This document shows, piece after piece, positions 3,452 to 35,178 of a stretch of DNA of 64,000 nt. The stretch lies in NCBI GenBank assembly GCA_017533325.1, contig JAFXIF010000044.1, positions 4,345 through 68,344 of the forward strand, in the 5' to 3' direction. The notes below the pieces were generated by a model. That model did no database searches. It saw only the letters and a list, made by a program, of their open reading frames with translations, and was not told the DNA's origin. The first letter of the stretch is position 1; every line of letters starts with the position of its first letter. The translations under genes were made by a program, and so were the position numbers. The stretch is from Alphaproteobacteria bacterium (GTDB lineage: Bacteria > Pseudomonadota > Alphaproteobacteria > CAAHEQ01 > UBA3637).

Positions 3452-3453
3452 GG

Positions 3454-4094: not shown

Positions 4095-4150
4095 TGTTAT
4101 TAACAATTTATTATTAACATAAAGATAAAAAGATGTCAAGAGATTTTTTA
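4095..4150 (-). promoter_or_regulatory. Promoter plus palindromic operator upstream of pncA (copy 1 of a conserved 56-nt element)
   Basis: Minus strand reads TTGACA (4139-4134), a 17-nt spacer, then TAATAA (4116-4111). Two TGTTATTAACA-type palindromes overlap the -10 and +1 regions. The element is nearly identical (4 mismatches in 56 nt) to 35121-35178. Confidence 0.5.
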
Positions 4151-4252
4151 TATATAAAAATATCAAAAAATAGAATAAAGGGGATTGTTATTTAAAAAAC
4201 AATATGTTATTATCAAAATGATTTTAACAAAAGATATTTTAAAGAGGATAAA

Positions 4253-5023
4253 ATGTTTATCAAAAAGGCAGAAAAAGCATTTTTAAAAACATACGATTCG
4301 TCTGTTTTTGAAAAATTATCAGTTACAACAGATTTGCTTGTTTTTAGTATTTCTGATTTAAAAACAAATAATTACAGAAAATTATCAAATAAAGTGATGA
4401 GTGTTTTTTTAGCGAATCGTGATCAATTCCCCTTTAAAGATTGTTGGAGTCTTCCAGGCGGTTTTGTTTCGCCAAAAGAAACATTAGAAGAAACGGCAAA
4501 ACGTGTTTTAAGAGAAAAAATACATGTGGATGATTTATATCTCGAACAATTATATACATTTGGTGAGGTTGAACGCGATCCGAGAATGAGGATTATTTCA
4601 GTCGCTTATATGGCGTTGGTTGAGAGATCAGATTTGCCTTATTCTCTTCAACAATCTGATAATTGGTTTAATATTTTTAGAGAAGATAATAAAATTATCT
4701 TGAGAAATGAAAAAGATTCAGGTGTGGAATTTGATTTAAATATGCCCTCGGTTTTAGCATTTGATCATCAAGAAATTATTAAAATTGGGTTAGAGCGATT
4801 AAAAAATAAAATTGAATATACTGATTTAGCTTTTCATCTTGTTCCAAATGAATTTACACTAACTGAGCTTCAAAATGTTTATGAATCTGTATTAGGTAAA
4901 AAACTTTTGGCTCCTGCTTTTAGGAGAAGTATCAAATCAAAAGTTATTCCAACCGGTAACATGACTTCCGGTAATGGACATAGGCCATCGGAATTATATT
5001 GTTATAAAAATAATGAAGCGTAA
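4253..5023 (+). CDS. nrtR: NrtR-like regulator (Nudix domain plus C-terminal winged-helix)
   Basis: 256 aa with Nudix signature region (LPGGFVSPKETLEETAKRVLREK) followed by ~100 aa of C-terminal extension. Divergent from the NAD salvage operon, as is typical for NrtR. Confidence 0.65.
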   Translation: MFIKKAEKAFLKTYDSSVFEKLSVTTDLLVFSISDLKTNNYRKLSNKVMSVFLANRDQFPFKDCWSLPGGFVSPKETLEETAKRVLREKIHVDDLYLEQLYTFGEVERDPRMRIISVAYMALVERSDLPYSLQQSDNWFNIFREDNKIILRNEKDSGVEFDLNMPSVLAFDHQEIIKIGLERLKNKIEYTDLAFHLVPNEFTLTELQNVYESVLGKKLLAPAFRRSIKSKVIPTGNMTSGNGHRPSELYCYKNNEA

Positions 5024-5068
5024 TTTACGGCTTATTTTTATTAAATAAAAAGCATCTAATACTGCTTG

Positions 5069-6274
5069 TTATAGATTTTTTCTGGGTGTGCTTTTTTTTG
5101 GGGCGTTTTTATGAGTTACATATTCGCCTTTCATGACACAGCACCACATCTGTGTTAATAAATTATTCCAGAATGAAATCGTTTGAATTGTAAAGAAAAA
5201 AGCAACATAAAAGTAAGCCCATATCAGATGCATGAATAAAAAGAAAATAATTGTTGCATGAATGGAAAGATGATGAGCAAACATGGAATAAATAATGCCG
5301 GAGGGAATGATAAAAAGGATGGATAATTTTACCCATAAAGCATGTTTTCTTGGTATTAAAATATAACAAAATGCATAAACAACCAAAATACCCAGCATTG
5401 AGGATAAAGAGGCAAGGGATTTGGCGTCTAGTAAAGCAGTGTATCCAACTTTTAAAAGCGGTAAAGCGGCGGTTTTTGTGTAATAGAATAAAATACCGAC
5501 AAGAAAGACATTAAGAATTATACCAATCCAAAATTTAATAACATACAGTGGCTTTTTTAGGCCCTGCCAAAAAGCTTTTGAAACAAGTCTAAATCTGAGG
5601 GGACCGGTTAAGACCAAGGTTAAAATTGTGAAAATATAAGATATACAGCAAATAGGAATAAGATATAAAATAGCTTGAGGTATTTGATTTGGTTCGATTG
5701 ACAAAATATTTGAAATGCCGGGCTTTTGTTTTAAAACGTTGATAACGAAACTCGACCAAAGCCAAATAATACTTGAAAACCAAGTATAGGTCGAAATAAG
5801 TAATAAAAAGGATTTGAAGATATATCTTTTAAACGAAAAAGCACCGTATGTTTGTTTTACTGATGTGAACGAAAAATAAGAGAAGAAACTAAACCAAAGG
5901 GCTTGCCAAAAGGCATACATAAAAGTTATCACCAAATAAAAATAAACACCGTCTTGAATTTTTTTGTTTTCGATAAAATAAACAAGTTGCAAAAAACATT
6001 CCGGTCGACCCCAAATAAGTCTGAACAGCATAACTAAAATTGTTGAAGCAATCAGCAAAAAAAGAAATGTTGCCATAAAGGATAGCGGACTAAATGAAAA
6101 TTTGAAAGCTTTAAAAATTGAAAATTTTTCCAAATCGATTAAAGATAAATTGGTTTGGTGAAGTTTTTGATGTTTTAAATTTAATGCTTTCTTATGGCAT
6201 TGATAAGCTTTTTCAGTTATCATGCCGTTTTTTAACATAAAATCCAAATTTTCAAGTTCTTGTCTGTCAACCAT
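5069..6274 (-). CDS. Polytopic inner-membrane protein, function unknown
   Basis: 401 aa with ~10 hydrophobic segments after a 40-aa cytoplasmic N-terminus. No recognisable catalytic motif. Confidence 0.5.
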   Translation of the reverse strand: MVDRQELENLDFMLKNGMITEKAYQCHKKALNLKHQKLHQTNLSLIDLEKFSIFKAFKFSFSPLSFMATFLFLLIASTILVMLFRLIWGRPECFLQLVYFIENKKIQDGVYFYLVITFMYAFWQALWFSFFSYFSFTSVKQTYGAFSFKRYIFKSFLLLISTYTWFSSIIWLWSSFVINVLKQKPGISNILSIEPNQIPQAILYLIPICCISYIFTILTLVLTGPLRFRLVSKAFWQGLKKPLYVIKFWIGIILNVFLVGILFYYTKTAALPLLKVGYTALLDAKSLASLSSMLGILVVYAFCYILIPRKHALWVKLSILFIIPSGIIYSMFAHHLSIHATIIFFLFMHLIWAYFYVAFFFTIQTISFWNNLLTQMWCCVMKGEYVTHKNAPKKSTPRKNL

Positions 6275-6336
6275 ACCAGTCCACCCCTCTAAACAAAGAG
6301 GACACTAGCATAAAATATTATAAAAAACAAGAAAAA

Positions 6337-6834
6337 TCAAAAAAACGGATTATACGCCCATTGAAGCAGCGCTTGTCGTTGCTTTTTTCGGCATTGAGTG
6401 TCAAATGGAAGGCAATTTTTTTCAATTTGTATTTTATGTCTTTTAAATGAGCGCCATCGTTTTATTTGAATGGCATCTATTTTCTCAATGCGTCTGCCTA
6501 AATAATATCGGCAATACCATTGAAACCACCCTCTTGGATCGGGTTCAAATATCCAGCCTTTTGATTGCCATATAAGCAAGCTTTGTCTTGATTTAACTTT
6601 AAAACAATTGCATGAAATGTCCGGTTCTTTGGGTGAAAGTTTTGCATTGGTAAACCATTCGTGTGGAAATTCATTTTGACAGTCTGTTAAATATTTCCCT
6701 TCAAAAACCCCTAACTCTAGCATTTCTTTTGGTGTTAATTCAGGTTGAAACAATGAAGAAAAATTTTTCCCTTCAGGTTCTGTTGTTTCATAAGAATAAT
6801 TTTTTTGCATTTTGTCACAACCAATTATTTTCAT
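6337..6834 (-). CDS. Hypothetical protein (Cys/Trp-rich, 165 aa)
   Basis: Intact ORF. No signal peptide and no motif I can assign. Confidence 0.4.
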   Translation of the reverse strand: MKIIGCDKMQKNYSYETTEPEGKNFSSLFQPELTPKEMLELGVFEGKYLTDCQNEFPHEWFTNAKLSPKEPDISCNCFKVKSRQSLLIWQSKGWIFEPDPRGWFQWYCRYYLGRRIEKIDAIQIKRWRSFKRHKIQIEKNCLPFDTQCRKKQRQALLQWAYNPFF

Positions 6835-7073
6835 TAAGTTAATATGGTGACTAAAAAAAATTTTTAAATAGATAAAAGTATTTTGATTTTTTTATTTTTG
6901 TATTATCCTTTTAATGTGTGTTAAAAATATAATGAATTAACCATTAAAACAACATGAGGAACGATTTAAAAAAAATGTTTTTATATTTCAATAGGAAAAT
7001 AAAAATCCGTTGATTTTTTGTCAAAAATATAGTATAATCAAGTAGTTTAATTTAAAATGGCAGCGGGATTAAA

Positions 7074-7811
7074 ATGGAAAAAAAAGAAACTCTTAATGAT
7101 GTCTCTTTTTGTTTGCGAAAAATAAAAAAAGAGGCATCTAAGAATACATTGCAATCAGGTGTTTTTGAAAATGTATTAAAACTATCTTACTTGTTGATAA
7201 GAGCGTTGGATAATAAAAAAACAACAACATTGGAAATAAAGAAGCAATTATTACAACTGGATGTATCCGGTGTAAAATTTTCTCCTTTTGTAAAGCGGTT
7301 TGTTCTTCAAAATTTACCTCTTTGTATAAAGGAAATTTCGCCTGTGGATGAAAGAGAAAATAAAGTATTAAAGTGGATGCATCATAGGGCTTTAACCGAT
7401 AAAACATTATTGCATATTGATTTTGTTGAATATAAAAGAAGTCTTGCAAAAAATTTTGATTCCTCTGATAAAGATGACTTTTTAAGTATTTGTTCTGTAA
7501 CTGAACAATTAATTTCTTCCGATTCTAAAAAAACATTGTTTAAATCTCCGGATGCTCGTATTCGTGAAATTGAAAATGATACTTTTATTAATGTATCTGA
7601 AGGCGTTAGAAACGCTATAAAAACCGGTTTGTTTTTCTTTAAAAGAGAAAGAATTCATTTATCACATAAACAAACGCCTGTTTGGGTGGAAAATTATGCG
7701 CTTTTGAAAAAAATGTGTCAAAAATATTATGTTGATATGTCGTCAAAGGCAAAAAAATCTCCATCTAATAGTAAAAAAAATGGGTTAGGGAATGAGAGGG
7801 TAAAATCATGA
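7074..7811 (+). CDS. Hypothetical protein (245 aa)
   Basis: Its stop overlaps the start of the next ORF by 4 nt (ATGA), suggesting translational coupling with the 1204-aa protein. Confidence 0.4.
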   Translation: MEKKETLNDVSFCLRKIKKEASKNTLQSGVFENVLKLSYLLIRALDNKKTTTLEIKKQLLQLDVSGVKFSPFVKRFVLQNLPLCIKEISPVDERENKVLKWMHHRALTDKTLLHIDFVEYKRSLAKNFDSSDKDDFLSICSVTEQLISSDSKKTLFKSPDARIREIENDTFINVSEGVRNAIKTGLFFFKRERIHLSHKQTPVWVENYALLKKMCQKYYVDMSSKAKKSPSNSKKNGLGNERVKS

Positions 7812-10800
7812 CAAATAAAAAAAACAGTTTGCTGCCGTTTAATATAATTTTTTTAGATGAACCGTTACCTTCTTGTTTTCATCAACGAAGCGGAATGACT
7901 TTTAAAGATCTTTTATCCGTTATTGGACGTGAATTTAAAAATACATATGTTCAAGGTCAACGCGCTGAAAGAGGAAAGAAAAAGGAACAGGTTCAAAATA
8001 ATGAAATTTCCAGAAAAGAGATTTTTGATAAAATTCGAGAAGAACTTGGGGACTCGGAATATGAAAGATTTCTTTCTGTTTTTAAAGATTTAGAAACGGA
8101 AACGGATTACCAAGCATTAAAAAGTAGTGCTTATATCGGAAATTCAAAAAATGCCAGAAATCACATGGGGGCAAATAATCTTTTGGAATGGATGTTCAGT
8201 GCTGATGGCAGAATTGATGCTTGTTTTATCCAAAAAGACGGGGTTAAATTTATCTTTATTATGGATGTGCGGTTGAGTAATCATTATAATAAAAAAGATG
8301 CTCAGTTGCATGAATTAAACAGGGATATTGCAAAAGTTATTGCGGATTCTTTTGATGGCAAAAATGGAAATGATCCTCAAGGAATTTTAAAAAATGGTTT
8401 GTTAGCTTATCAACACGAGCTTTTGCAAAATACAAACACTGTTTCGGCTCAGTTTGAAACTCTTTTGATTACAATTGAACAATTAATTGCCTCAAATGAC
8501 TCTGTTCTGGAAAAGATTGAGTTGTTTAAAAGGGATTTATCTGTTTGCTTAAGACATGTATCTGAAGAAGAATTTGATAACTATATTAAAAAACGTTTAA
8601 TTACGGGGCCGATTAAGAATTATCAAAAAGAGCTTTTTGATAGATTGTATAGCTATGAATATGGGAAAGATAAATTAACAAATGAAATTGAAAATACTTT
8701 TACCGGTATTCAGGCTGTTAAAACATTGGCGCCGTCATTTTTTAACAGAGTAAAGGATTTACTTGAAAAAGAGGAAAATGAAAAAACAGAACGTGAATGG
8801 GCTCAAGATACATTAGATTGTTTCCGTGTTTTTCACAAAATATCTCCGTCATATATCTATATCTTAGAAGAAGAGATTGATGATTTTTGTTCTGATATCG
8901 AATCGGATGAATTAAAACAACAGCTTGAATATTTTGTTGGAGAATTAAAAAATTTAAAAGTAAATTATCGGTTTGTTGATGGGAATTCCCCTTATAAAGA
9001 ATTTAAAAAACTTCTTAACAATGCTAAAAAGTCAAGATTTCAACCATTAAATATGGGTGAAAATGTTCTTGAAAAAAAAGATGTTTTGGTTGATTTATTA
9101 AAAACGGACATTTCAGAATTAGCTGATTTAAAGGCTGTGGATAAAATTGCTGCAGCTTTAATTAAAATTATTGTTGAAGAAGAGTATTCTTCTGTTTCGG
9201 AGTTTGTTCAAGAACATAAATCTTTAATCCCGTCTGCAAATAAAAACAGCGTTTATAGACAAGTTCCAAATCCGGAAAATACGTTTAATGCTTTGTTAAG
9301 AGAAATTTTAAAAAACAAAAAAATTCAATCTAATTTGTGTCAAAAATATCCATATTTAACTGAATATGTTGACCAGCTTCAAAAAGAAGGAGTTGTAACT
9401 TCTCAAGATGAGTTAAATACGATATGCGAATATTATCGGGAGTATGCTTATACAGGAGATGAGGAGTTTTTTGTTGAGGCTAACAAAGTGTTAAAAACTA
9501 TGCCTGAAGCAAAGCGCTCGTTATATAAAGGCTATCTGCAACATGTTTATTCTCTGTCCCCTGAAAATTCGGAAATTTTGGAATTGGCAACCGGTTCGTT
9601 GAATATTATTGATGAACTGAAGCGCATTGAAACCATTAAAGATAAAATAGAAATAAGTTTAGGGCAGGAAGAAAAGAAAATCACCCCAATACAACAAAGT
9701 GGCAGATTTGCTTTTGAAAATATTTTTAGCGATTTTTTAATGGATATGGGAAATGTTGATTTATATGAAGAATTGCAATCAAAAGCAGCTCAATTAACTC
9801 AAACTGATTTAGAAGAATTAAGAAAAGCTGATGGTGAAATAGGTGAATTTATCAAGGATTATATTAAATATTCTTCAAAAAAGAAAAAACCGGCTTTTTC
9901 AACATTGATTGAAAATGTTTTAAAACGTGAAGAAATAAAACGAAGAGAACGTTTTGAACAAGCACTTTCTAATTATTTTGTTTCATTAGATCGTAAACAA
10001 GCTAAAACAGATTTAGGGTTAAGTTGTTTAACTCTTGAACCGAAAGATGTTGATTATTTTCTTACAAAATGGAAAGCAAATGAAAAACAAAATGAATTAA
10101 AAATTTTATTTTTGCAAACATATAAAGCTTCTTCATTTGAAATAGCAATGAAAAGAATTGATACTAAAATTATTAAAGAGAAAAAAGCCATTTTAGATGC
10201 ATTTATAAAACAATATCATGAGATTATTAAGGAGGGAAATAAAGATAATTTAAATGATTTTGTTCAATTTATCCTTCAACTAAAAAATGTTGATTTAGAT
10301 ATGTTGACGTATATTCATGAAGAGCAAGAAAATGCACAAGTTTGTTCTTTTTTAGAGAATATTAGTAAGATAAAATCAAAAAACAACAAAAATGCAACAA
10401 AAGAAATTCAAGAGATAATTCTAAGCACTGAAAGACGGTCAGGCTTTAAACAAAAAATGTATGATTATTTTATTAAAAACCCTGGAGAAGAAACAAAAGA
10501 AATCTTAATACGGGACATTTTTAATTTGAATAAATCAGATATAGATGCCTTTTTCAGTGATAACACAAACAGTCATCCGTTCAAACTGTTTTTTGGTAAA
10601 TTACGTAATTTGAGAAACAAATTAAAGGCGCAAAATATGGAAAACGAAGTGTCTAATATAATAGATGCAACAAAACGGCGCTTGTATTTTTATAATACCT
10701 TATATAGCTATTTGCATAATGCCGAGGCAGATAAGTCCCAGGCTGAAGTTTTGGCGGATTTTTACTTAGCGTTAACACCTCAAGATCAAAAAGATATTGA

Positions 10801-11422: not shown

Positions 11423-11432
11423 AAGGAATAAA

Positions 11433-12014: not shown

Positions 12015-12120
12015 ATTTTATAAAAAAATTGACATAAAATAAAAAAAACTGTATACTATCAAAAGTTAATTTGGTATGGGTGTGTTTTTTATTCCGAAAG
12101 AGAATAAAAAAGGAGGAAAT

Positions 12121-12942: not shown

Positions 12943-12943
12943 A

Positions 12944-13285
12944 TTATACTTGGGCATTTCCAAATCGGTTTGAAATGTTTTTTCCTTTGATGAAAGGAAG
13001 AATTAAAATCGGTAAAACACAAAGAATCCACCAACCGCTTAAATTTAAATCATGCAATCTTCTGATGATTAAGCCGCCAACAATCCATGGCATAAATATA
13101 ATAAAGTATAGCAGATAAAGCATATTGATAATTGTGATGTTATTTAAGGATGCCATAAAAAGGGGAAGGGCAAAATAAACAGTTAAAATTGTCCAAAATT
13201 CCAAAAGATCAGCTCTTGATTTGATATCAAAAAATTTGTTACCGAAAAAGCTTATAAAAACAATATGAATAATTTTTTGAATCAT
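12944..13285 (-). CDS. DUF805-family small membrane protein
   Basis: 113 aa with 3 TM segments and an RRLHDLNLSGWW motif characteristic of DUF805/YhaH-like proteins. Confidence 0.55.
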   Translation of the reverse strand: MIQKIIHIVFISFFGNKFFDIKSRADLLEFWTILTVYFALPLFMASLNNITIINMLYLLYFIIFMPWIVGGLIIRRLHDLNLSGWWILCVLPILILPFIKGKNISNRFGNAQV

Positions 13286-17223: not shown

Positions 17224-17790
17224 GACAAATCCTTATACTTTTTGTTTCCCATATAATTTGTTTATCATACAATATAATAAAATACTATAAAAATAGTTGG
17301 ATTTTTTATATTTTTTTACCTGTTTTATTGAATAAAAAAAATATGGAAAAATAAATATAAAAAAGGATTAATTGGTGTAAAATTACAATATCCATTAAAA
17401 AAAACTTCGCTTTATTATCATGAAAACTCTTGCTATATAAGGGTATTATTTTACCAGTTGAATATATTTTGGCGGAATAACACCATTTTTAACAATAATA
17501 AAGTAATAACGAATAAAAGCAAAACGCCACCCTTTTTCATCATCTCAAATACTGTAATTATTCGGTGTAAAATCAATTTCTGTTAAATCAGAAAGTTGAT
17601 ACAATCCTTCATCATTTTTATTTTTTGGTTATTTTTCTAATATAGAAGGGCTCAGATAAATCGATTCTGTCAACCCGTTTTTTTAAGGGCGGAAATATCA
17701 ATTTTAAATAAATCTGATGTTTTTATAAATTTCCTTATGCTAGGTGTGTTTTGAGTGTGTTGCAGTGGTTCAATCAATAACCTAATGCCA

Positions 17791-17863
17791 CAACTCAGCC
17801 AACAAAAAACGCCCCTTTCGGAGCGTTCTTTTATTGGCTGGAGAAGTCTGGTAATACACGGAG
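17791..17863. repeat. Copy A of a ~70-90-nt terminator-containing repeat that is homologous to the tRNA-Gln 3' flank
   Basis: CAACTCAGCCAACAAAAAA, a hairpin, then TTCTTTTATTGGCTGGAGAAGTCTGGTAATACACGGA. The same architecture recurs at 19188-19282 and 20575-20645. Confidence 0.5.
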
Positions 17864-18038
17864 TATTATTATGTTGTATTGTTAAAAAATAATATAAATT
17901 CATCTTGACAAGATAAGATTTTTATAAAAACATATTGATATAATTAGGTTGATTTATTTTTGTTTTGTTGTCTATTTATCTGTATTTAAAAGAATTTTTA
18001 GTTAATTGATTTTTACTGGGAGTAAAGAAGGGTTTCAA

Positions 18039-19187: not shown

Positions 19188-19282
19188 CTGCTTGTTGCTC
19201 AAATTCCTTTAGTTTAGTCAACAAAAAAAACTCCACAAGGGAGGTTCTTTTATTGGCTAGAGAAGTCTGATAATACACGGAA
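19188..19282. repeat. Copy B of the tRNA-Gln-flank repeat
   Basis: TTGTTGCTCAAATTCCTTTAGTTTAGTCAACAAAAAAAA, hairpin CTCCACAAGGGAGG, then TTCTTTTATTGGCTAGAGAAGTCTGATAATACACGGA. It aligns with copy C over ~80 nt. Confidence 0.5.
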
Positions 19283-19343
19283 TGATTTTAATATTGAAAC
19301 CATTTAAAAATAATGCTAAAGTTTAACACAAAGGAGTTTAAAA

Positions 19344-20574: not shown

Positions 20575-20645
20575 TCATGCCATTCGTTGCTCAAATCCCC
20601 TCAACTTAGCCAACAAAAAAACCTCCGCAAGGGAGGTTTTTTTAT
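20575..20645. repeat. Copy C of the flank repeat, the native 3' flank and terminator of tRNA-Gln
   Basis: TCGTTGCTCAAATCCCCTCAACTTAGCCAACAAAAAAA, hairpin CCTCCGCAAGGGAGG, then TTTTTTTATTGG, running straight into the tRNA 3' end. Confidence 0.55.
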
Positions 20646-20720
20646 TGGCTGGGCTGGCTGGATTCGAACCAACGAATGACGGTATCAAAAACCGTTGCCT
20701 TACCACTTGGCGACAGCCCA
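20646..20720 (-). tRNA. tRNA-Gln (anticodon UUG)
   Basis: Minus strand reads TGGGCTGTCGCCAAGTGGTAAGGCAACGGTTTTTGATACCGTCATTCGTTGGTTCGAATCCAGCCAGCCCAGCCA. Cloverleaf with a GGTTCGAATCC T-arm and encoded CCA. Anticodon loop TTTTGAT. Confidence 0.85.
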
Positions 20721-20861
20721 ATTTTTCATTGGTAATCGTATTTATATTCCATTTTGGTATAAAATGCAAGTGTTTTTTTTGCTTTTTGTAAAAAAATATT
20801 ACAAATAGTTATATTTTTTGTTTTTTTGAGCACTATTTGTGTTCTTTCCCTTTTGATTAGT

Positions 20862-21171
20862 TGGCGCACTTGTCTCGATTATTCGCTATCGCTCACCCAT
20901 AAAGGGCTGTCTCATTTCATTCGACATTGGCTCGGGCATAAAAGCCCTTGCCCCGAACTCACTTTGCGAGTTCTTCTCTCGCCAAGTATAAAAAAACCAC
21001 CCCTAAAGGTGGTTTTTGGCGCACTTGTCTCGATTATTCGCTAACGCTCACCCATAAAGGGCTGTCTCATTTCATTCGACATTGGCTCGGGCATAAAAGC
21101 CCTTGCCCCGAACTCACTTCGCGAGTTCTTCTCCCGCCAAGTATAAAAAAACCACCCTCAAAGGTGGTTTT
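20862..21171. repeat. Tandem 155-bp repeat (2 units), each ending in a copy of the tRNA-Arg 3' end
   Basis: Units at 20862-21016 and 21017-21171 are ~95% identical. On the minus strand each unit ends in ...CGAATAATCGAGACAAGTGCGCCA (compare the tRNA-Arg 3' end CGAATCTCGCCAAGTGCGCCA). Each unit also has its own AAACCACC(ttt)GGTGGTTTTT terminator hairpin. The units are comparatively GC-rich. Confidence 0.8.
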
Positions 21172-21248
21172 TGGCGCACTTGGCGAGATTCGAACTCACG
21201 ACCCTTGCCTTCGGAGGGCAATACTCTATCCAGCTGAGCTACAAGTGC
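21172..21248 (-). tRNA. tRNA-Arg (anticodon CCG)
   Basis: Minus strand reads GCACTTGTAGCTCAGCTGGATAGAGTATTGCCCTCCGAAGGCAAGGGTCGTGAGTTCGAATCTCGCCAAGTGCGCCA. Anticodon loop CTCCGAA. Confidence 0.85.
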
Positions 21249-28300: not shown

Positions 28301-28506
28301 GAAAAGAAAAAGGGTTTGATGTTTCAGATCGTATTCAATTAACTTATACAACTGATTCTTCGTTGGTCAAAGAAGCGATCGCCGAACATGAAGCTTATAT
28401 TAAGGATCAAGTTTTGGCCGTTGAAATTAAAGAATCCACTGACTCTTTATTTAAACAAGAAGAGTTGGGCGATTCAAATATTTCATTTGATGTTATAAAA
28501 AATTAA
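25399..28506 (+). CDS. ileS: Isoleucyl-tRNA synthetase (type 2)
   Basis: 1035 aa with HIGH-type motif PHYGH and KMSKS-type KLSKKLKN. Eukaryote-like type-2 architecture. Confidence 0.9.
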   Translation: MSQQKYYPQLNSRISFPEMEKEIIAYWEKEKTFQKSIDIRKEAEEFVFYDGPPFANGLPHYGHIMISYVKDTIARFQTMNGKRVERRLGWDCHGLPAEMAAEKELGVSGHKAIEEFGIQKFNDFCRTNVLKYSTIWTDMFRRIGRWVDFDNDYKTMDLSFMESIICNFKQLYDKGLVYEDYRVQPYSWCAQTPVSNFEVNLGYRDKTDTAITVLFKLENDMNILVWTTTPWTLPSNLMLAVGEDIEYAVMQEGDEKYILAEALLGRYKQQLQHAERVGTMKGSELVGLSYTPMFPYFKDLKEKGCFKVLKGEFVSVEDGTGIVHIAPGFGQDDFDVCRSLNPEFPVVCPVDEAGCFTSEVPDYQSRQVFDTNEDIMTWLKENRLLVKKEQITHSYPYCWRTDTPLIYKAMSGWFVKVSDFRDEMVALNEQITWTPDHLKNGRFGKWLEGARDWSISRNRFWGTPIPVWKSDNPQFPRIDVFGSIEEIKEKTGIEVKDLHRPIIDDVVYQNPDDPSGKTMMRRVTDVFDCWFESGSMPEGQLHYPFENKKWFEEHFPADFIVEAIDQTRGWFYTLHVLGTALHHKPAYKNCLCTGLIMAEGGVKLSKKLKNYPDPYVVLDSMGSDALRWFLVSSPVIKGGNVMIDQEGKEVSKAARKALMPLWNAFYFFCLYANAEGIKATKTVGSDDVLDRYILSKVKVLAQDVKKSMEEYDINQACADCAEFLDILNNWYIRRSRTRFWDGTDLTAFNVLYTVLITIAKVMAPLMPMMCEYVYRSLTEKESVHLRSYPDVSALTQDVELMEKMDLVRTISSTAKAIREEHRLRNRLPLRSMTIAGTSVEKLYEFAEVLKEEVNVKDIVFKTDINEVADTFLYLKTPLIGKRLGRFMKDIMAESKGNNWKQNEDGTLSIAGQILTQEEYELRLVLKEGLQGQALPDNTAVIQLDTQIIPELEKEGIARDFVRMIQSLRKEKGFDVSDRIQLTYTTDSSLVKEAIAEHEAYIKDQVLAVEIKESTDSLFKQEELGDSNISFDVIKN

Positions 28507-28528
28507 AAAATTCATTTTGTATTTTTAA

Positions 28529-28566
28529 TACTCTGTGTTTTAAAAAAAGGCACAGAGTATTTTTTT
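28529..28566 (+). terminator. Rho-independent terminator after ileS
   Basis: TACTCTGTG(ttttaaaaaaagg)CACAGAGTA followed by a T7 run. Confidence 0.7.
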
Positions 28567-28617
28567 ATGAAAAAAACTTCGTTTTTTCATAAACTTCTTC
28601 TTGCATAAAAAATAAAA

Positions 28618-28632
28618 TTAACTTATTGTTAA
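28618..28632 (+). promoter_or_regulatory. Candidate CtrA box (TTAA-N7-TTAA) upstream of ctrA
   Basis: TTAACTTATTGTTAA lies 37 nt upstream of the ctrA start. The motif can occur by chance in AT-rich DNA. Confidence 0.3.
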
Positions 28633-28668
28633 GAAAGGTTAATAAAGTCTATCTAAAAAAGGGGCGAT

Positions 28669-29355
28669 ATGCGTATTTTACTTATCGAAGACGACAAAAC
28701 GGTTAGTCAAAATATCTCATTGATTTTAAAAAGAGAAAATATTGTTGTGGATTGTTCTTTCAAAGCGGAAGATGGCCTTGAAGATGCAAAACATTATGAA
28801 TATGATTTAATCATTTTAGATTTAGGGTTGCCGGATATGGATGGATGTGAAGCTATTCGGAAACTTCGCGGTATGCAAATTTCAACACCGGTATTGGTAT
28901 TATCCGGAATGGCGGCAATTGATAAAAAAGTGAATGCTTTAGCTTTTGGTTGTGATGATTATTTGACAAAACCTTTTGATACCAGAGAATTGATTGCAAG
29001 AATTAATGCACTTGTCCGCCGTTCTAAAGGCTATTGCGAAAATGTTATTCGAACCGGCGATATGGAAGTGAATTTAAATTCAAAAATTGTAACCATAATG
29101 GGAAAAACGCTTCATTTAACAAGTAAAGAATATGCTCTTTTTGAGTTGCTTGCTTTAAGAAAAGGGGCAACAATTAATAAAGAACAATTTTTAAATCATC
29201 TTTACGGAGGAATGGATGAACCGGAAGGCAAAATCATAGATGTTTTCTTGTGTAAAATTCGCCGTAAGATTGAAAAAATATCCCCGGAAGAAGAATATAT
29301 TCAAACTGTTTGGGGTAGGGGATATATTTTAAAAGATTTGCCCGTTCTTCAATAA
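28669..29355 (+). CDS. ctrA: Cell-cycle response regulator CtrA (OmpR family)
   Basis: 228 aa. The receiver and winged-helix domains track Caulobacter/Brucella CtrA closely (MRILLIEDD, LSGMAAIDKKVNALAFGCDDYLTKPF, LIARINALVRRSKG). Confidence 0.8.
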   Translation: MRILLIEDDKTVSQNISLILKRENIVVDCSFKAEDGLEDAKHYEYDLIILDLGLPDMDGCEAIRKLRGMQISTPVLVLSGMAAIDKKVNALAFGCDDYLTKPFDTRELIARINALVRRSKGYCENVIRTGDMEVNLNSKIVTIMGKTLHLTSKEYALFELLALRKGATINKEQFLNHLYGGMDEPEGKIIDVFLCKIRRKIEKISPEEEYIQTVWGRGYILKDLPVLQ

Positions 29356-29402
29356 AAAATAAAGTTTTTTATAAAAAGTATTTTTATCTTTTAGCCAATA
29401 AC

Positions 29403-29440
29403 AAAAAACGCCTTCTTAAAAAAGAAGGCGTTTTCGTTTG
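29403..29440. terminator. Bidirectional terminator between ctrA and the OMP gene
   Basis: CGCCTTCTT(aaaaa)AGAAGGCG flanked by an A-run and T-run. Confidence 0.6.
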
Positions 29441-29455
29441 AACACTTGTTCTTAA

Positions 29456-30250
29456 TTAGAAACCAAGGCGTAATCTTAAACCGATTTGATTGCCGTGAAT
29501 GTCTTTTTTGTGTTCTTCACCATCAATGATATAGGCACCGTATGCGCTAACTGCAACATTCTTTGTGACATGGTAAGCTGCTTCAATGCCGTATGTATAA
29601 AGACGGGTTTCATTCCATTCGTCATAATCAACGCTTAATTGATGATCAACAGAAACTTTCATTTTCGGGCAGTATGTGTATAAACCGGCTGTTCCTGTGT
29701 ATTTAATTTCATTGTCATCGCGATCGCTTTGCCAAACAGGAATTTCGGCTGTACCTGATAAATATGGTGTCCAATATCCCATTTTATAACCGATTTTGGC
29801 GCCGACTTTAGCATATTTATAAGCACCTAATTCAGCATAATCTTCTTTTTGACCATAAGCCAAAATAGATTGAACTTTTAAAGCGCCATCTGAAACAAGG
29901 TTGTATTTTGATGTGATTTCAAAATTAATATTTTTGTCATCGCTATCTGTTGTTGAATATAAATCAACGTAATCAGAATATGTGCCTTTCAACCATGAGT
30001 TAGAAACGGTAACGCCCAATGACCAAACATCCGACAAACCATATTCAAGTGTTTGTGTGGCTGTGTGAGCATAACCTTTTGCGCGAGTACCGGCATAATC
30101 ATTTTTTACTGTTACGGTTGAATAATCATAAGATGTTGTTGAAGCCCATCCTCCTTCTTGCGGAACATAGAATGGGTTTGTTAATTCAACAGCGCCTGCA
30201 GATGTTGCAAGGCTCATAACACCTAATAACAAAAATGCTTTTTTAAACAT
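29456..30250 (-). CDS. Outer-membrane beta-barrel protein (Omp25/porin-like)
   Basis: Signal peptide followed by alternating amphipathic beta strands rich in Y/G/T. C-terminal aromatic residue (…RLRLGF). Confidence 0.6.
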   Translation of the reverse strand: MFKKAFLLLGVMSLATSAGAVELTNPFYVPQEGGWASTTSYDYSTVTVKNDYAGTRAKGYAHTATQTLEYGLSDVWSLGVTVSNSWLKGTYSDYVDLYSTTDSDDKNINFEITSKYNLVSDGALKVQSILAYGQKEDYAELGAYKYAKVGAKIGYKMGYWTPYLSGTAEIPVWQSDRDDNEIKYTGTAGLYTYCPKMKVSVDHQLSVDYDEWNETRLYTYGIEAAYHVTKNVAVSAYGAYIIDGEEHKKDIHGNQIGLRLRLGF

Positions 30251-30655
30251 AATTAACTCCTTTTATAAAAGTTTGATTGTTACCAATCTTATTGCAGGAC
30301 CCTCCTGCTGATATCTACTTTAGACAATCATAACAAAATATGCAACAAAAATATCATATTTTACGAATCGCGATTCTTTTTTTTCGATTCGGAAGCGTTC
30401 GAATTGATGAAATTGTCTATCGCTTTTTAAAATCAAGACTTTTTGAAAAAAAGTCATTTTTTGGTCTCTTTTTTAGTCTAAATAAACACCTTTTGTGTGT
30501 AGAATAAAAAATATAAAAATTATTATATTTCAATAAGATATAAAAAATAGAAAAAAGCTATTGACAATCAAAGTTTAGTCTTTGTATGAATAATTATAAG
30601 ATAGGTCCAACGGACTAAAAAAGTTTAAAAACCCAAAAATAGAAAGGAAGAAAAA

Positions 30656-30841
30656 ATGACAGATGCAGAAATCTTGAAAGCAAATGAAAATGAACGTCAA
30701 TCTGTTGAATGTTGGACAAGAGTTATGGGTTATTTCCGTCCATACAGTCATTTTAATAAAGGTAAAAAATCAGAATTTGAAGAAAGACAATGGTTTATTG
30801 AAGAAAAAGCCTGTTGTTCATGCGAAATCAAAGCCGCTTAA
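30656..30841 (+). CDS. Small ORF resembling the glycyl-radical C-terminal segment of anaerobic ribonucleotide reductase NrdD
   Basis: 61 aa with TRVMGYFRPYSHFNKGKKSEFEERQW, which fits the NrdD pattern R-V-x-G-Y…FN-x-GK-x-x-E…R. It has its own AGGAAG RBS and a downstream terminator. Confidence 0.35.
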   Translation: MTDAEILKANENERQSVECWTRVMGYFRPYSHFNKGKKSEFEERQWFIEEKACCSCEIKAA

Positions 30842-30861
30842 AAATTCTCTCTTGATGAAAA

Positions 30862-30887
30862 ATGCCCTTTTAAAGGGCATTTTTTTG
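30862..30887 (+). terminator. Rho-independent terminator
   Basis: ATGCCCTTT(ta)AAAGGGCAT followed by a T7 run. Confidence 0.6.
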
Positions 30888-30938
30888 TTGTGAAAAGCAA
30901 AGGTTTTTTATATCTTAAAATATAAAGGAGTTTTTATT

Positions 30939-31703
30939 ATGTTTAAAATTATAACTTTTTTATTATTTGTATTGTTAACACCTTTTGCTTCATTTGCAAA
31001 TTACGCTGAAGTTGATTTAAGGGCAAAAAACGTTCCTGAGCGTTATGAAAAAAGATTAGAGGACTTGGTTAAATATCTTATTGAACCATATAAAAAGAAT
31101 GATGAGCTAAAAGCACGAGCAATTTTTGCTTGGATCGGATATCATATTGAGTATGATATGTTTAAGTATGATGTTATCAGTGAAAAAAAGAAAGGAGCCC
31201 GTTATACAAAAAGAAAAATGCGCACAGGTGATGCTTTTAAAACAAGAGTGGGTGTTTGTGGGGATATTGCTGATTTATATGAACGGATGGCAAAATCTGC
31301 CGGATTGGAAGTCGAATATATCTCCGGATATGCTGGCAATAATTTAACAATGGATGATTTAGATGATTCTGGTCATGCATGGAATGCTGTTAAAATTAAC
31401 AAAAAATGGTATTTTGTTGATGCAACTTGGGGCGTGAGCGGTGATTATACGGCTTTTGATAATGTTGATTCTTTGGCCAAACATAGAAAAGAAATTCGAA
31501 AACGGCGCCGTGGAGATGTTGATGTAAGCAAAAATAGAACATTGAACGATAATTGGTTTTTAGTTCCGCCGGAGCGTATGGTTAAAACTCATTTTCCAAG
31601 AAGAGAAAAAAATCAACATTTATCACGACCGGTTGATATGAAAAAAGTTTTAAGAGAAAATAAAAGACGTATGGAAAAAGAAAAACGAGGTAAAAAAAGA
31701 TGA
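30939..31703 (+). CDS. Secreted transglutaminase-like cysteine protease superfamily protein
   Basis: Signal peptide. Cys-His-Asp core spelled VGVCGDIADLY … SGHAWNAVK … FVDATW. Confidence 0.6.
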   Translation: MFKIITFLLFVLLTPFASFANYAEVDLRAKNVPERYEKRLEDLVKYLIEPYKKNDELKARAIFAWIGYHIEYDMFKYDVISEKKKGARYTKRKMRTGDAFKTRVGVCGDIADLYERMAKSAGLEVEYISGYAGNNLTMDDLDDSGHAWNAVKINKKWYFVDATWGVSGDYTAFDNVDSLAKHRKEIRKRRRGDVDVSKNRTLNDNWFLVPPERMVKTHFPRREKNQHLSRPVDMKKVLRENKRRMEKEKRGKKR

Positions 31704-32767
31704 TTTATTCTCAATCTGTTTTGTTAATCGACTTAAATGCCTTAAAAGAAAATTATTTGTTTTTAAAACAGACGGCACCTAATAGTATTTGTGCGGCCGT
31801 TGTTAAGAATAATGCCTATGGGTTGGGGATTGAACGTGTTGTGCCGGCGCTTAGAGAAGTCGGATGTAATGATTTTTTTGTTGCTTTAGCTGTGGAAGGA
31901 GAACGAGTTCGATCTGTTGCTCCTCAGGCGAATATTTATGTTTTACAAGGAATTGGAGACGATTCGGTAAAATTATTCCAAGATAACAAATTAATACCGG
32001 TTATTTCTACACCGGCGATGTTTAAATTTTGGATGAAAAATAAAATTGACGGAATAAAACCCGTTTTAAATATTGAAACAGGTTTAAATCGTTTGGGATT
32101 TAGAAAAAAAGACGTTATGGCACTAACAGAAGATGAAAAAAAAGAATTTTCCTATCTTTTATCCCATTTGGCCTGTGCTGACGAACCATATCATTTTATG
32201 AATCGGCATCAAATTAAAGAGTTTGATGAAATGAAAAAAATGCTACCGAATTTAAAGTCAACATTATCTGCATCCGATGGTGTTTTTTTAGGGGAAAATT
32301 TTCAAAAAGATATGGTGCGATTAGGCGCTGCAATGTATGGGTTAAATACGGCGCCGGACAGACAAAATAAGATGAAAGCTGTTGTTCATTTAAAAGCACC
32401 CGTTCTTCAAATTGCTAATGTTTCAGATGGAGAATATATCGGTTATGGAGCTTCTTATAAAACCAAAAAAGAAATGAAAATAGCAATCGTTTCTATTGGT
32501 TATGCGGATGGACTACCTCGCTCATTAATGGGTCGGGGAAGAGTGTTTTTTTTAGATCAGGAAATAAGGCTTATCGGTCGATTATCGATGGATAACTTGA
32601 TGTGTGATGTAACGGATGTAAAAGGACTAAAAGAAGGAATGTTTGTTGATGTTTTAAACAATCATTACACTGCTGATGATATGGGTGCTGATGCTGGAAC
32701 AATCGGTTATGAAATTTTAAATGGTGTTTGTAAATCAGGTAGAGTTCAAATAATTGAAAAAAAATAA
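31700..32767 (+). CDS. alr: Alanine racemase
   Basis: 355 aa with a PLP-lysine region AVVKNNAYGLG and Alr-like length. Confidence 0.8.
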   Translation: MIYSQSVLLIDLNALKENYLFLKQTAPNSICAAVVKNNAYGLGIERVVPALREVGCNDFFVALAVEGERVRSVAPQANIYVLQGIGDDSVKLFQDNKLIPVISTPAMFKFWMKNKIDGIKPVLNIETGLNRLGFRKKDVMALTEDEKKEFSYLLSHLACADEPYHFMNRHQIKEFDEMKKMLPNLKSTLSASDGVFLGENFQKDMVRLGAAMYGLNTAPDRQNKMKAVVHLKAPVLQIANVSDGEYIGYGASYKTKKEMKIAIVSIGYADGLPRSLMGRGRVFFLDQEIRLIGRLSMDNLMCDVTDVKGLKEGMFVDVLNNHYTADDMGADAGTIGYEILNGVCKSGRVQIIEKK

Positions 32768-32800
32768 AAGAAACGGCACTTAGAAAAAGTGCCGTTTAAA
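32768..32800. terminator. Bidirectional terminator between alr and the recombinase gene
   Basis: AACGGCACT(tagaaaa)AGTGCCGTT. Confidence 0.6.
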
Positions 32801-32804
32801 GTTT

Positions 32805-33413
32805 TTAATAGCCTGCGTTTTTTAAATAGTTATATATTGTTTTAGAACTAACGCCTAATCTTTGAGCAATTTTTGTTTTGGCAAGGCCTTGTTTGTAAAG
32901 CAAGATAATCTCTCTTTCTTTTCCGTCGAGAATATGTTTTTTATTTTTTGAACCGGGGGTGCGACCAAGTCGTTTCCCTGTTGATTTTAATCTTGCCAAA
33001 GCTTCTTTTGTTCTTTGACTGATTAAATTTCTTTCAATTTCAGCAGAAAGGGAAAAAGCGAATGCTAAAACTTTACTTTGGATGTCGGATCCTAAACGGT
33101 AATCATCTTTAACAGTCCAAACTTTAATATTGCGCTGCATACAATAATTTAAAATAGTCATAACTTGAAAAAGATTTCGACCTAATCTTGAAATTTCAGT
33201 GCAAATTAAAATATCACCTGCTTTTAATTTTTTGATATATTTACCAAGTTTTCGAAATTCAACATCTTTTGTTCCGCTGACTGTTTCGCTTATCCAACCG
33301 GAAATTAAAATATTTTCTTTTTTTGCGAATTCAATAAGTTCAAATTCTTGATTTTTGTGAGTTTGCTTATCTGTGCTAACACGAATATATGCATAATTCA
33401 TATCCATCTCCAT
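32805..33413 (-). CDS. Serine recombinase (resolvase/invertase family)
   Basis: N-terminal catalytic YIRVSTDKQ with Ser nucleophile, plus a C-terminal HTH (KTKIAQRLGVSSKTIYNYL). The start could be ATG 33401 instead. Confidence 0.85.
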   Translation of the reverse strand: MEMDMNYAYIRVSTDKQTHKNQEFELIEFAKKENILISGWISETVSGTKDVEFRKLGKYIKKLKAGDILICTEISRLGRNLFQVMTILNYCMQRNIKVWTVKDDYRLGSDIQSKVLAFAFSLSAEIERNLISQRTKEALARLKSTGKRLGRTPGSKNKKHILDGKEREIILLYKQGLAKTKIAQRLGVSSKTIYNYLKNAGY

Positions 33414-33427
33414 TCATAATATGCATA

Positions 33428-33494
33428 AAAAAACCTAAACATTGTAAGTTTAGAAACAAAAAGTATGTAAAACTTAAAAAAAGCTTTACATACT
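33428..33494 (-). terminator. Tandem hairpin terminators between the radical-SAM gene and the recombinase gene
   Basis: 10-bp perfect inverted repeat AGTATGTAAA/TTTACATACT and 6-bp CTAAAC/GTTTAG, each followed by a T-run on the minus strand. Confidence 0.5.
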
Positions 33495-33535
33495 ATATTA
33501 TACCCTAAAAATTCATTATCCGGTTAAAAAAGATT

Positions 33536-34492
33536 TTATGCTGAAGCAATTAAGGCATTTCCGCATGTAATACGATCGCTATCTTCCTCATGACTGGGGA
33601 CAAAAACAATCACATCCCATCCTTTTTTGACAAGCGGTTGTTCAAATTCGCGGTATACGTCATAATCATCATAGCTTGTTGTCACATCAAATCCATTTTG
33701 AATGGCTGAATTTGTTTCATGAATAGGCGTGATCTTAACGATAAACATTTTGGGATCAAAAAGTTCTGTTAATCGGTCAGCATCCAAAATAGTATCTTTT
33801 GTAACGGCAAAATTAAGTGTATATTTTCTGCCGACAGGCTGAGGTAATTCTTTGGCTAAAGCAGAAATTTCTTCTAAGCTTAAACTGTTGGAATTAAACT
33901 GAGCCTCACGTTGAGCGTTATCGGTTGAATTAATTGAAAATTGAAGTCCGGCTTCTCCGTTATAATCAATATTTTTGATATTGCACCAATCTAATATAAA
34001 TTGTTTTAATTTTTTATTTTTCTTTGGAAGCATAGTGGAAACAACCGGATGAATTGTTTTGGCTGTGATATATTTTTTTGTTATATCGCGTAAATGATTT
34101 TTTGCAAATTCCAAAACATTTTCATTGAATGTCGGTTCACCCATTCTGGCAAAATGAACATTAAATCTGTCTGTGTTTTTTATTGTTTCATTTTTTAAAA
34201 TGGTTTCAATCTCAAAAGAGAGTTCTTCAACAGATGCATTTCCGAAAAATCCGAATTTTGGACAGTCACAGAATTGACATTTCATCGGGCACCCTTTTTG
34301 AGTGCTGATTGTTGCGACCCATTTTTTTGTTAAATCAACTTCTTTATGTTTAACGCCGTTAATTTCGGTATGTAACCCTAAAAAATCGGCTTTAATATTG
34401 TTTTCTTTACCATAATCGCCAACTGTTAAAAATTCTAAACGATGTTCGGTGTCAACATAAATTTTTCCGGTATGAGTGTGAACAATTTGCAT
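33536..34492 (-). CDS. Radical SAM enzyme, family unassigned
   Basis: 318 aa with CPMKCQFC (CxxxCxxC) at residues ~68-75 and a downstream GEP SAM-binding motif. No SPASM or other auxiliary Cys cluster. Confidence 0.75.
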   Translation of the reverse strand: MQIVHTHTGKIYVDTEHRLEFLTVGDYGKENNIKADFLGLHTEINGVKHKEVDLTKKWVATISTQKGCPMKCQFCDCPKFGFFGNASVEELSFEIETILKNETIKNTDRFNVHFARMGEPTFNENVLEFAKNHLRDITKKYITAKTIHPVVSTMLPKKNKKLKQFILDWCNIKNIDYNGEAGLQFSINSTDNAQREAQFNSNSLSLEEISALAKELPQPVGRKYTLNFAVTKDTILDADRLTELFDPKMFIVKITPIHETNSAIQNGFDVTTSYDDYDVYREFEQPLVKKGWDVIVFVPSHEEDSDRITCGNALIASA

Positions 34493-34549
34493 AATTTTCC
34501 TCCATAAATTGTTTTTGTTTTAAAAGTACATCATAATACACATATTTTG

Positions 34550-35104
34550 TCATTCATTTAGTTGAAAAAGGCCAAAAAGTGTTTCATTTGTTTTATCATC
34601 TTCAATATTTTCATCAATTAAATAAAGGTGATAAAATTCGCCGGCATTTTTTCTGCAAATAACAGCATAATTTTCGGGATATTGACCTGTGGATAACTTT
34701 TTTGCTGCTAAAGCAGTATCTTCTGCTTCTAATTCTTTAATATCAGGAAATTTTTCTTTTCTGTATTTAACAGTTTGTTTTAATGCTTGAATATGAGAAG
34801 TAATAGAATCGATTTTAGAGTCTTTGTTTTTTATAAATAATGAATGATGAATTGGAAGCGTAAGTGTATCTATCATTTTTATTTTATTACTCAAAGCATT
34901 TAAAGTTTCTTGAACCGGTCCCGCAATTTTGTTTTCAAGAGCCAAAACGCCATAATCAATTTCCTTGTTTAAAAGCGCGGTTACAACCTTTCTTGATGAA
35001 ATTAAAGGAATGAAACAAGGTGTTTTTATTTTATGAATTTTTGAAAATTTAAATGCAGCTTCTTCAGAATTTGAAAATAAATCACCTTGAAATCCGATTT
35101 TCAT
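34550..35104 (-). CDS. Stand-alone prephenate-dehydratase (PDT) catalytic-domain protein without ACT domain
   Basis: 184 aa aligning to the PDT domain (KIGFQGDLFSNSEEAA, DYGVLALENKIAGPV, LPIHHSLF, SHIQAL). Confidence 0.7.
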   Translation of the reverse strand: MKIGFQGDLFSNSEEAAFKFSKIHKIKTPCFIPLISSRKVVTALLNKEIDYGVLALENKIAGPVQETLNALSNKIKMIDTLTLPIHHSLFIKNKDSKIDSITSHIQALKQTVKYRKEKFPDIKELEAEDTALAAKKLSTGQYPENYAVICRKNAGEFYHLYLIDENIEDDKTNETLFGLFQLNE

Positions 35105-35120
35105 TTTTTCTCCTTTAAAT

Positions 35121-35178
35121 TGTTATTAATAATTTGTTATTAACATAAAGATAAAAAGATGTCAAGATGTTTTTTATT
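35121..35178 (-). promoter_or_regulatory. Promoter/operator copy 2 (near-identical to 4095-4150) upstream of the PDT-like / radical-SAM operon
   Basis: TGTTATTAATAATTTGTTATTAACATAAAGATAAAAAGATGTCAAGATGTTTTTTA. The minus strand gives TTGACA, a 17-nt spacer and TAATAA, with a perfect palindrome TGTTATTAACA. Confidence 0.5.

Follow-up and report, generated by a model that had tools for sequence, protein, structure and literature searches.

Within a 64,000-nucleotide (nt) stretch of a contig from a gut alphaproteobacterium (JAFXIF010000044.1; hereafter the window), a 56-nt block of intergenic DNA occurs twice, once in front of an operon for niacin salvage and once in front of a predicted two-gene operon that encodes a protein with a prephenate-dehydratase (PDT) domain and a radical S-adenosylmethionine (SAM) protein. 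Here, we propose that the two copies are paralogous sigma-70 promoters carrying an operator for NrtR, the regulator encoded beside the salvage genes, and that the radical SAM gene is a selected NrtR target, which was gained through an old promoter duplication and has been maintained as such. Taken as a whole, we consider this model quite likely. The element itself is of a known kind, an ordinary NrtR operator–promoter, and what is new is its target, the PDT–radical SAM operon.

The repeated promoter and its operator

The two copies lie at 4095–4150 and 35121–35176 and are identical at 52 of 56 positions in an ungapped alignment, the longest uninterrupted match being 31 nt. The preliminary description of this DNA had reported the same match, which stands, and had given the second interval as 35121–35178, which is 2 nt too long. 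A repeat search of the window returned the pair as a direct two-copy family (D4, 88% over 66 nt), the sole long intergenic two-copy repeat of such a kind in the window; the G+C content of the source DNA is about 32%. Identity decays outside the block, to 60/76, 67/96 and 77/116 positions with 10, 20 and 30 nt of flank added. Both copies have the same orientation and lie 5′ of minus-strand genes, copy 1 as the putative promoter and operator of the pncA–nadM–pncB–nadE operon and copy 2, located by alignment and by the repeat search, as those of the PDT–radical SAM operon. The operator edge is 26 nt from the ATG of pncA (edge at 4095, ATG at 4068) and 16 nt from the ATG of the PDT gene (edge at 35121, ATG at 35104), in agreement with the shared orientation and the closeness to both start codons described before.

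Read on the minus strand, both copies contain TTGACA, a 17-nt spacer and TAATAA with TG before it. The predicted sigma-70-type promoter of pncA (4110–4139, minus strand) has its -35 hexamer TTGACA at 4134–4139 and its -10 hexamer either at 4110–4115 (AATAAT) or at 4111–4116 (TAATAA, with TG upstream), and a promoter scan called it as TTGACA-18-AATAAT with 11 of 12 matches. For the PDT–radical SAM promoter (35137–35165, minus strand), the sequence can be read as an exact -35 (TTGACA, 35160–35165), a 17-nt spacer and a TG-extended -10 (TAATAA, 35137–35142). The scan did not call this second copy, as its -10 (TAATAA/AATAAC) ends in C or A and not in T. The -10 of copy 2 is weaker than the earlier wording of near-consensus sigma-70 promoters suggests.

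The operator is a 25-bp imperfect palindrome composed of two 11-bp palindromic boxes of the type TGTTAnTAACA, 14 bp apart, and it spans the -10 hexamer and continues to about +10. Palindromic boxes over -10 and +1, as in the layout of a repressor operator, had been proposed before, and the 25-bp double box indeed covers both. When the window was scanned with a degenerate double-box consensus (TGTTAWTAWYAWWTTRTWAATAACA), the full 25-bp double box was found, at up to 2 mismatches, only at 4095, 4205 and 35121, in the promoters of pncA, nrtR and the PDT gene, respectively. The single box TGTTATTAACA occurs 12 times in the window at up to 1 mismatch against 3.5 expected, a number reached in none of 100 shuffles. 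We refer to the three double boxes as O1 (4095–4119, TGTTAATAATAAATTGTTAATAACA in minus-strand reading, 0 mismatches to the consensus), O2 (4205–4229, TGTTATTATCAAAATGATTTTAACA, 2 mismatches) and O3 (35121–35145, TGTTAATAACAAATTATTAATAACA in minus-strand reading, 0 mismatches), and to the loci used for comparison by L numbers. O1 is conserved in L105, L075 and L034, the O2 block in four species, and O3 5′ of the PDT gene in L048, L074 and L029.

The third copy, O2, was absent from the preliminary description. It is located 24 nt 5′ of the nrtR ATG and overlaps an nrtR promoter predicted by the promoter scan (TTGTTA at 4185–4190, 17-nt spacer, TATTAT at 4208–4213). Because this box sits in front of nrtR, the position of the site implies that nrtR is probably autoregulated. 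Further degenerate boxes at 4081–4091 and 4191–4201 keep to the 14-bp phasing of O1 and O2, and three phased boxes per promoter could possibly allow cooperative binding.

The niacin-salvage locus and the box in other genomes

The niacin salvage operon (721–4068, minus strand; genes assigned with Pfam and NCBIfam) starts with a pncA-like gene of the isochorismatase family (3454–4068), followed by a gene for an archaeal-type nicotinamide/nicotinic acid mononucleotide (NMN/NaMN) adenylyltransferase (nadM, 2987–3451), pncB (1504–2970) and nadE (721–1488). Divergent from pncA is nrtR (4253–5023, plus strand). Its product combines an N-terminal Nudix-like domain with a C-terminal NrtR winged helix (Pfam NUDIX 37 bits, NrtR_WHD 64 bits), which is the domain arrangement of the NrtR family. 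In the PDB it matches AraR and the Nudix-family entries 3gz5 and 2fml (E 1e-24 to 1e-26), and it scores 145 bits against the NCBIfam model 'ADPR responsive repressor', under the equivalog cut-off of 400. No other regulator gene lies next to copy 1, as had been stated from the start. On the other side of the locus, 5′ of the window start (L001, 2219–5897), a cytidylyltransferase-like gene with an F420_ligase (CofE-like) gene on either side lies just 5′ of pnuC; the search for an NrtR box at this cluster gave none.

A degenerate-box scan of 185,579 species genomes (GTDB) gave at least 118 loci, the gene content of which was assessed over 8 kb by tblastn with the nicotinamide adenine dinucleotide (NAD) proteins of the window. 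The loci belong to Bacilli, Clostridia, Paenibacillus, Brevibacillus, Ruminiclostridium, Muribaculaceae, Mollicutes and gut Alphaproteobacteria. Among the 118 matches listed, to which all of the following counts refer, 95 have pncB, nrtR, pncA, nadE or pnuC within 8 kb (pncB at 70, nrtR at 45 and nadE at 22 loci). A window-type NAD gene or nrtR, mostly nrtR, starts at most 400 nt downstream of the box at 36 loci, and a Firmicutes-type PncA-like open reading frame (ORF) lies at most 300 nt downstream at 45, which together places the start of nrtR or of a niacin-salvage gene directly downstream at about 81 loci, the overlap of the two lists being unchecked. At 22 loci the box stands directly 5′ of nrtR, and several of the loci that lack a tblastn match encode, by eye, PncA-, PnuC- or Prs-like proteins. 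Conservation across phyla is confined to the 25-bp double box and does not extend into the flanks. As a control, 951 kb of phage DNA contained no box site at up to 3 mismatches.

Since the box loci mostly carry NAD-salvage genes, the box is, on this comparative evidence, an NrtR-type operator of a niacin-salvage regulon and not a dispersed repeat: it is a palindrome that lies 5′ of NAD genes and of nrtR, overlaps a promoter and recurs in NrtR-encoding genomes. NrtR has been described as a repressor that is released by ADP-ribose and whose sites overlap promoters, and the NrtR regulons published for Clostridium contain nrtR, pncA, pncB, nadD and nadE (PMC2330246). These targets match those of the box loci, which points to NrtR as the regulator of the box. 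As in the published NrtR regulons, a regulator with a Nudix domain and a winged helix adjoins niacin-salvage genes in the window, palindromes overlap the promoters and one site is located 5′ of nrtR; the same double box is found beside nrtR and pncB in Ruminiclostridium, Paenibacillus, Clostridia and Bacilli. Unlike in those regulons, the host is a gut alphaproteobacterium and there is an extra PDT–radical SAM operon, which the published regulon table does not list. In addition, four Paenibacillus loci (L064, L066, L088 and L128) have a double box 13–22 nt 5′ of a gene for a 351-amino-acid (aa) protein, SPFH/band-7-like by eye, which is a possible unreported NrtR target.

Conservation and history of the PDT–radical SAM promoter

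At the syntenic locus in L029, L048 and L074, which consists of alr, in some cases an invertase gene, the radical SAM gene, the PDT gene and an AI-2E transporter gene, the PDT protein is 66–72% and the radical SAM protein 89–93% identical to that of the window. The promoter–operator block is present 5′ of the PDT gene in all three, and an alignment of the PDT upstream regions of the window, L048, L074 and L029 reveals conservation only of this block and of the divergent transporter promoter. The box occurs in locus-specific variants that are common across species, ...AATAAATTG... for pncA and ...AACAAATTA... for the PDT gene: pncA promoters from these genomes or from related ones (L105, L075 and L034) carry the pncA-type box and the PDT promoters the PDT-type box. 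As the variants sort by locus and not by genome, the duplication is older than these species and has been kept without homogenisation, which speaks for selection rather than for a recent copy or a mobile repeat. Because the locus-specific variants are common across species, we also rejected gene conversion and a recent duplication within the genome.

At L151, a PDT gene occupies the syntenic site with neither the radical SAM gene nor the box. A likely order of events, as read from these loci, is that the PDT gene was resident, that the radical SAM gene inserted downstream of it, and that a copy of the pncA promoter–operator was then placed before the pair. Directly downstream of the radical SAM gene lies a gene for an Mpi-family serine DNA invertase (32805–33413; NCBIfam 287 bits, above the cut-off), which L029, L048 and L151 share at the corresponding position and which L074 and L024 lack there.

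Linkage of the radical SAM gene to NAD-salvage genes

The radical SAM gene is also linked to NAD metabolism away from the repeat. In a sister lineage, a radical SAM gene whose product is 83–85% identical lies inside the gene order pncB–pncA–radical SAM–nadE–DUF5662–nrtR, downstream of a homologous promoter in which the boxes are arranged in the same way (L015/L016, L017/L077 and L132, and also L086, the sequence of which ends inside the radical SAM gene). Three metagenomic loci show other arrangements: L234 has the order HD, nicotinamide mononucleotide adenylyltransferase (NMNAT)-like, nadE, radical SAM, PTS_EIIC_2, nrtR; L274 contains nrtR, two isochorismatase genes, DUF5662, a methylase gene, a 172-aa ORF and the radical SAM gene; and in L264 the radical SAM gene adjoins an isochorismatase gene. 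Among more distant homologs, P0189 and P0226 are fusions with an isochorismatase-family hydrolase, a domain that NCBIfam did not score as nicotinamidase, and a homolog in Moorella adjoins an NMNAT-like gene. In all, at least five distinct architectures and lineages tie the radical SAM gene to nrtR, nadE and isochorismatase genes.

Given an operator that is kept in three other species and the presence of the radical SAM gene in NrtR-linked NAD operons elsewhere, the link of this gene to the NAD regulon is, at the level of genomic context, independently confirmed, and within the PDT–radical SAM operon it is probably the real NrtR target. The preliminary description had assigned the radical SAM and PDT pair as a unit to the NrtR/NAD regulon; the conserved operator and the NrtR-linked operons bear this out for the radical SAM gene, whereas the PDT gene is more likely a passenger than a functional partner. 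It had also called the link undescribed, and the literature that we searched likewise contained no paper that ties a radical SAM enzyme to NrtR or to pncA/pncB operons, and none on DUF5662.

The radical SAM protein of the NAD-operon lineage is 83% identical to that of the window, against 37–53% for the products of the neighbouring NAD genes. Recent horizontal transfer as the sole cause of this high identity is weakened by L024, a syntenic locus at which the radical SAM protein is 89% identical, against 74% for Alr and 54% for PDT. As it is far more alike than its neighbours there as well, the radical SAM protein is intrinsically constrained.

Several further features accompany the gene at these loci. 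DUF5662 (phrog_20637) recurs beside it in NAD operons and islands (L015 11753–12226; L017; L020 7264–7800; L274 2864–3862) and may be a second uncharacterised partner. One lineage alone (L015 7661–7864) has a 67-aa Cys-rich ORF separating pncB from the NrtR-box promoter; L017 lacks this ORF. The membrane protein of the PTS_EIIC_2 family between the radical SAM gene and nrtR in L234 (3885–5060) could be a transporter of pyridine precursors. In another lineage, the DNA in front of the radical SAM gene and that in front of a gene for a 187-aa protein both hold a copy of a block of ~110 nt (L020 8980–9140 and 9830–9990; L021 9830–9990; L022 4340–4500), which contains a terminator-like hairpin and the inverted repeat GTTCGAAAGT...ACTTTCGAAC and adjoins a tRNA gene in L022. 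This block looks like a different operator or like att-like island repeats.

The radical SAM family

The radical SAM protein of the window (33536–34492, minus strand, 318 aa) has a CX3CX2C motif at C68/C72/C75 and a conserved C-terminal cysteine, C310. It belongs to a rare and highly conserved family (755 representatives among 1.84 billion) that is distantly related to RlmN and Cfr, and it gives a full-length profile match (351 bits, residues 6–316) to phrog_24834, a phage family with no assigned function. IMG/VR contains more than 577 viral loci with the gene, the best 80 of which encode proteins 65–77% identical to that of the window; overall, phage and bacterial copies share 65–93% identity. 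Many of the viral contigs are 65–280 kb long, and one copy has a divergent family B DNA polymerase gene on one side and a terminase gene on the other. The phage neighbours are RNA-repair genes, namely Thg1 (11 of 80 loci), RlaP, RNA ligase, CCA-adding enzyme and phosphoesterase, and in a Lachnospiraceae prophage an RNA ligase and a KTI12-like kinase are encoded near the gene. The phage copies do not carry the NrtR box in the 951 kb of phage DNA scanned as control. In a neighbour-joining tree without support values, the alphaproteobacterial copies form one clade nested among phage copies, and the PDT-linked and the NAD-operon-linked copies fall into different subclades, which hints at two separate recruitments of the radical SAM gene to NrtR control.

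RlmN and Cfr are class A radical SAM methylases that act on adenine C2/C8 in rRNA and tRNA. The family profile matches RlmN and Cfr structures over the whole catalytic domain (E about 1e-17), and the best fold match of the AlphaFold model (predicted local distance difference test score 77) is Cfr 9p0p. C68/C72/C75 and C310, the latter in a CG(Q/N) motif, align with the cluster motif and the C-terminal CGQL of RlmN, the cysteine of which we take to be the methyl-carrying Cys355. However, the protein scores 35 bits against an NCBIfam cut-off of 290 and lacks the N-terminal domain of RlmN, with the alignment beginning at residue 86–108 of the RlmN PDB chains. Moreover, in our reading of the alignment Thr61 occupies the position of the second catalytic cysteine, C118 in RlmN, and the genomic partners are NAD-salvage genes or phage RNA-repair genes. 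Judged by profile scores and alignment, the family is distinct from RlmN/Cfr.

Other relatives of the radical SAM protein are fused to a QueT-like energy-coupling factor (ECF) S component together with a methylthioadenosine/S-adenosylhomocysteine (MTA/SAH) nucleosidase (224 bits), or to a thioredoxin-reductase-like flavoprotein. These architectures would fit a small-molecule radical SAM enzyme, and the nucleosidase would fit the removal of radical SAM by-products. They also recall the context of QueL, the queuine lyase of Clostridioides difficile encoded in the queK–qrtT–queL operon with its preQ1 riboswitch, which is a small gut-bacterial radical SAM enzyme for micronutrient salvage. We leave the identity of the window protein with QueL at low probability: no C. 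difficile protein is found among the best 120 matches, no preQ1 riboswitch is present in the window or upstream of the QueT-fusion gene (L152), no queK or tgt neighbour was seen at any locus examined, and the fused nucleosidase is of the MTA/SAH type; no direct comparison with the QueL sequence was made. A role in an anti-phage defence system was also considered and set aside, as PADLOC gave marginal matches only.

What might the radical SAM protein do? As a tentative and rather doubtful suggestion, phrog_24834 may represent an undescribed, RlmN/Cfr-like pyridine-nucleotide enzyme that acts on NAD, on ADP-ribose, on a nicotinamide or nicotinate derivative, or on NAD-linked RNA. The bacterial copy would then be induced through NrtR upon NAD cleavage, and the phage copy could undo the damage caused by host defence alongside RNA repair.

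The PDT protein

The first gene of the PDT–radical SAM operon (34550–35104, minus strand) encodes a protein of 184 aa with a PDT domain (Pfam PDT, 131 bits), which belongs to a family of short PDTs without an ACT domain from gut bacteria and anaerobic fungi. It resembles the catalytic domain of PheA in its PDT match and in keeping the catalytic Thr of the TRF motif. It differs from the usual prephenate dehydratase in the missing ACT domain and in the TRF motif, which reads TLF in the window protein; across the short-PDT family, the basic residue of this motif is replaced by Leu or Thr. Because L151 has the PDT gene without the radical SAM gene, and nearly all radical SAM homologs lack a PDT neighbour, gene context argues that the PDT gene is probably a co-regulated passenger and not a functional partner. 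For the same reasons, an obligate pair in analogy to MqnA/MqnE was rejected.

Alternative explanations

A number of observations weigh against the model of a selected, NrtR-controlled promoter duplicate. The -10 hexamer of copy 2 is poor, and L024, the nearest syntenic relative outside the clade, has the PDT–radical SAM pair without the box. L053 and L059, close relatives of the NAD-operon lineage, lack exactly the radical SAM gene, which indicates that it is accessory and dispensable for salvage. In the best 80 viral loci, no NAD genes were found near the radical SAM gene, which in phages sits among RNA-repair genes. The generic NrtR site is a 21-bp palindrome with the core GT-N7-AC (Rodionov, 2008; PMC2330246), whereas the present box has GT-N5-AC twice in a 25-bp palindrome; GT-N7-AC fits in no register of the double box, which was compared with the generic core only, and NrtR motifs are reported to differ strongly between lineages (PMC2330246). 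Finally, the window's own genome is not among the box loci listed, and the copy number of the block refers to the 64-kb window only.

Could the operator simply have come along with a useful promoter? In this scenario, the pncA promoter was duplicated as a usable promoter and the operator hitchhiked, so that NrtR control would be non-adaptive and the radical SAM protein unrelated to NAD. This would agree with the sharing of the whole promoter rather than of the operator alone, with the nature of the radical SAM gene as a mobile, phage-type gene found in many contexts, and with the L024 pair. However, the PDT operator is intact in four species despite the divergence of the PDT proteins (66–72% identity) and of the surrounding intergenic DNA, and chance insertion does not predict the linkage of the radical SAM gene to nrtR, nadE and isochorismatase genes in so many architectures. 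We therefore regard a neutral copy as unlikely.

The box could also be the site of another regulator of NAD genes that is encoded elsewhere, for instance a NiaR- or NadR-like protein, and not of NrtR. Its half-site resembles the enterobacterial NadR operator TGTTTA-N6-TAAACA (PMC2330246), it departs from the published generic NrtR core, and nrtR is within 8 kb at just 45 of the 118 loci among the matches listed. Yet the window locus encodes no regulator besides NrtR, a box lies 24 nt 5′ of the nrtR start codon, and a box directly precedes nrtR at 22 of the listed loci. The published Clostridium NrtR regulons have the same targets, pncA, pncB and nadE, and NadR-type repressors are described in PMC2330246 as confined to Enterobacteria. 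An operator for a regulator other than NrtR is, in our judgement, very improbable. Still harder to sustain is a dispersed or mobile repeat, akin to a miniature inverted-repeat transposable element (MITE) or left by the Mpi-type invertase, that came to lie at the two loci by chance: an invertase gene does adjoin the radical SAM gene and the boxes are palindromic, but the full block has only two copies and the box three in 64 kb, both copies of the block keep fixed distances from start codons, and other species retain both at the orthologous sites. In L074 and L024, moreover, the invertase gene is missing from this place, neither terminal inverted repeats nor target duplications were observed, and the box loci listed elsewhere are almost all NAD loci. 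Within the 64-kb window and among the box loci listed, there is thus no sign of the dispersal over unrelated loci that the preliminary description had cautioned about.

Other repeats in the window

Two further repeats lie near tRNA genes. A tandem duplication of a 155-nt unit, perfect to 97%, occupies 20861–21170 between tRNA-Gln (20646–20720) and tRNA-Arg (21172–21248). Moreover, an element of 54–75 nt, a GC-rich hairpin flanked by GCCAAC...TTGGCT, is present in three copies ~1.4 kb apart (17788–17871, 19207–19290 and 20599–20652), the last of which abuts tRNA-Gln. These copies could represent small cassettes in tandem or repeats of an att site.

Proposed model and implications

In the model that we favour, NrtR would bind O1 at the salvage operon, O2 at its own promoter and O3 in front of the PDT–radical SAM operon, and thereby block RNA polymerase. 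By analogy with characterised NrtR proteins, ADP-ribose, a product of NAD cleavage, would release NrtR, such that niacin salvage and the radical SAM protein would be induced together while NAD is being consumed. A small clade of gut Alphaproteobacteria would have inherited the PDT–radical SAM promoter from an ancestor in which the pncA promoter–operator was duplicated, and would have retained it. Selection would act on the radical SAM gene as the target, with the upstream PDT gene co-regulated as a bystander.

In conclusion, the locus offers a clear example of regulon growth through promoter duplication. Through regulation and genomic context, the second copy of the promoter–operator opens a way to approach a radical SAM family without an assigned function that is present in hundreds of gut phage genomes. 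On this basis, candidate substrates can be named, namely NAD, nicotinic acid adenine dinucleotide (NaAD), NaMN, nicotinamide, ADP-ribose and tRNA, as well as a candidate inducing condition, which would be the derepression of NrtR by ADP-ribose.

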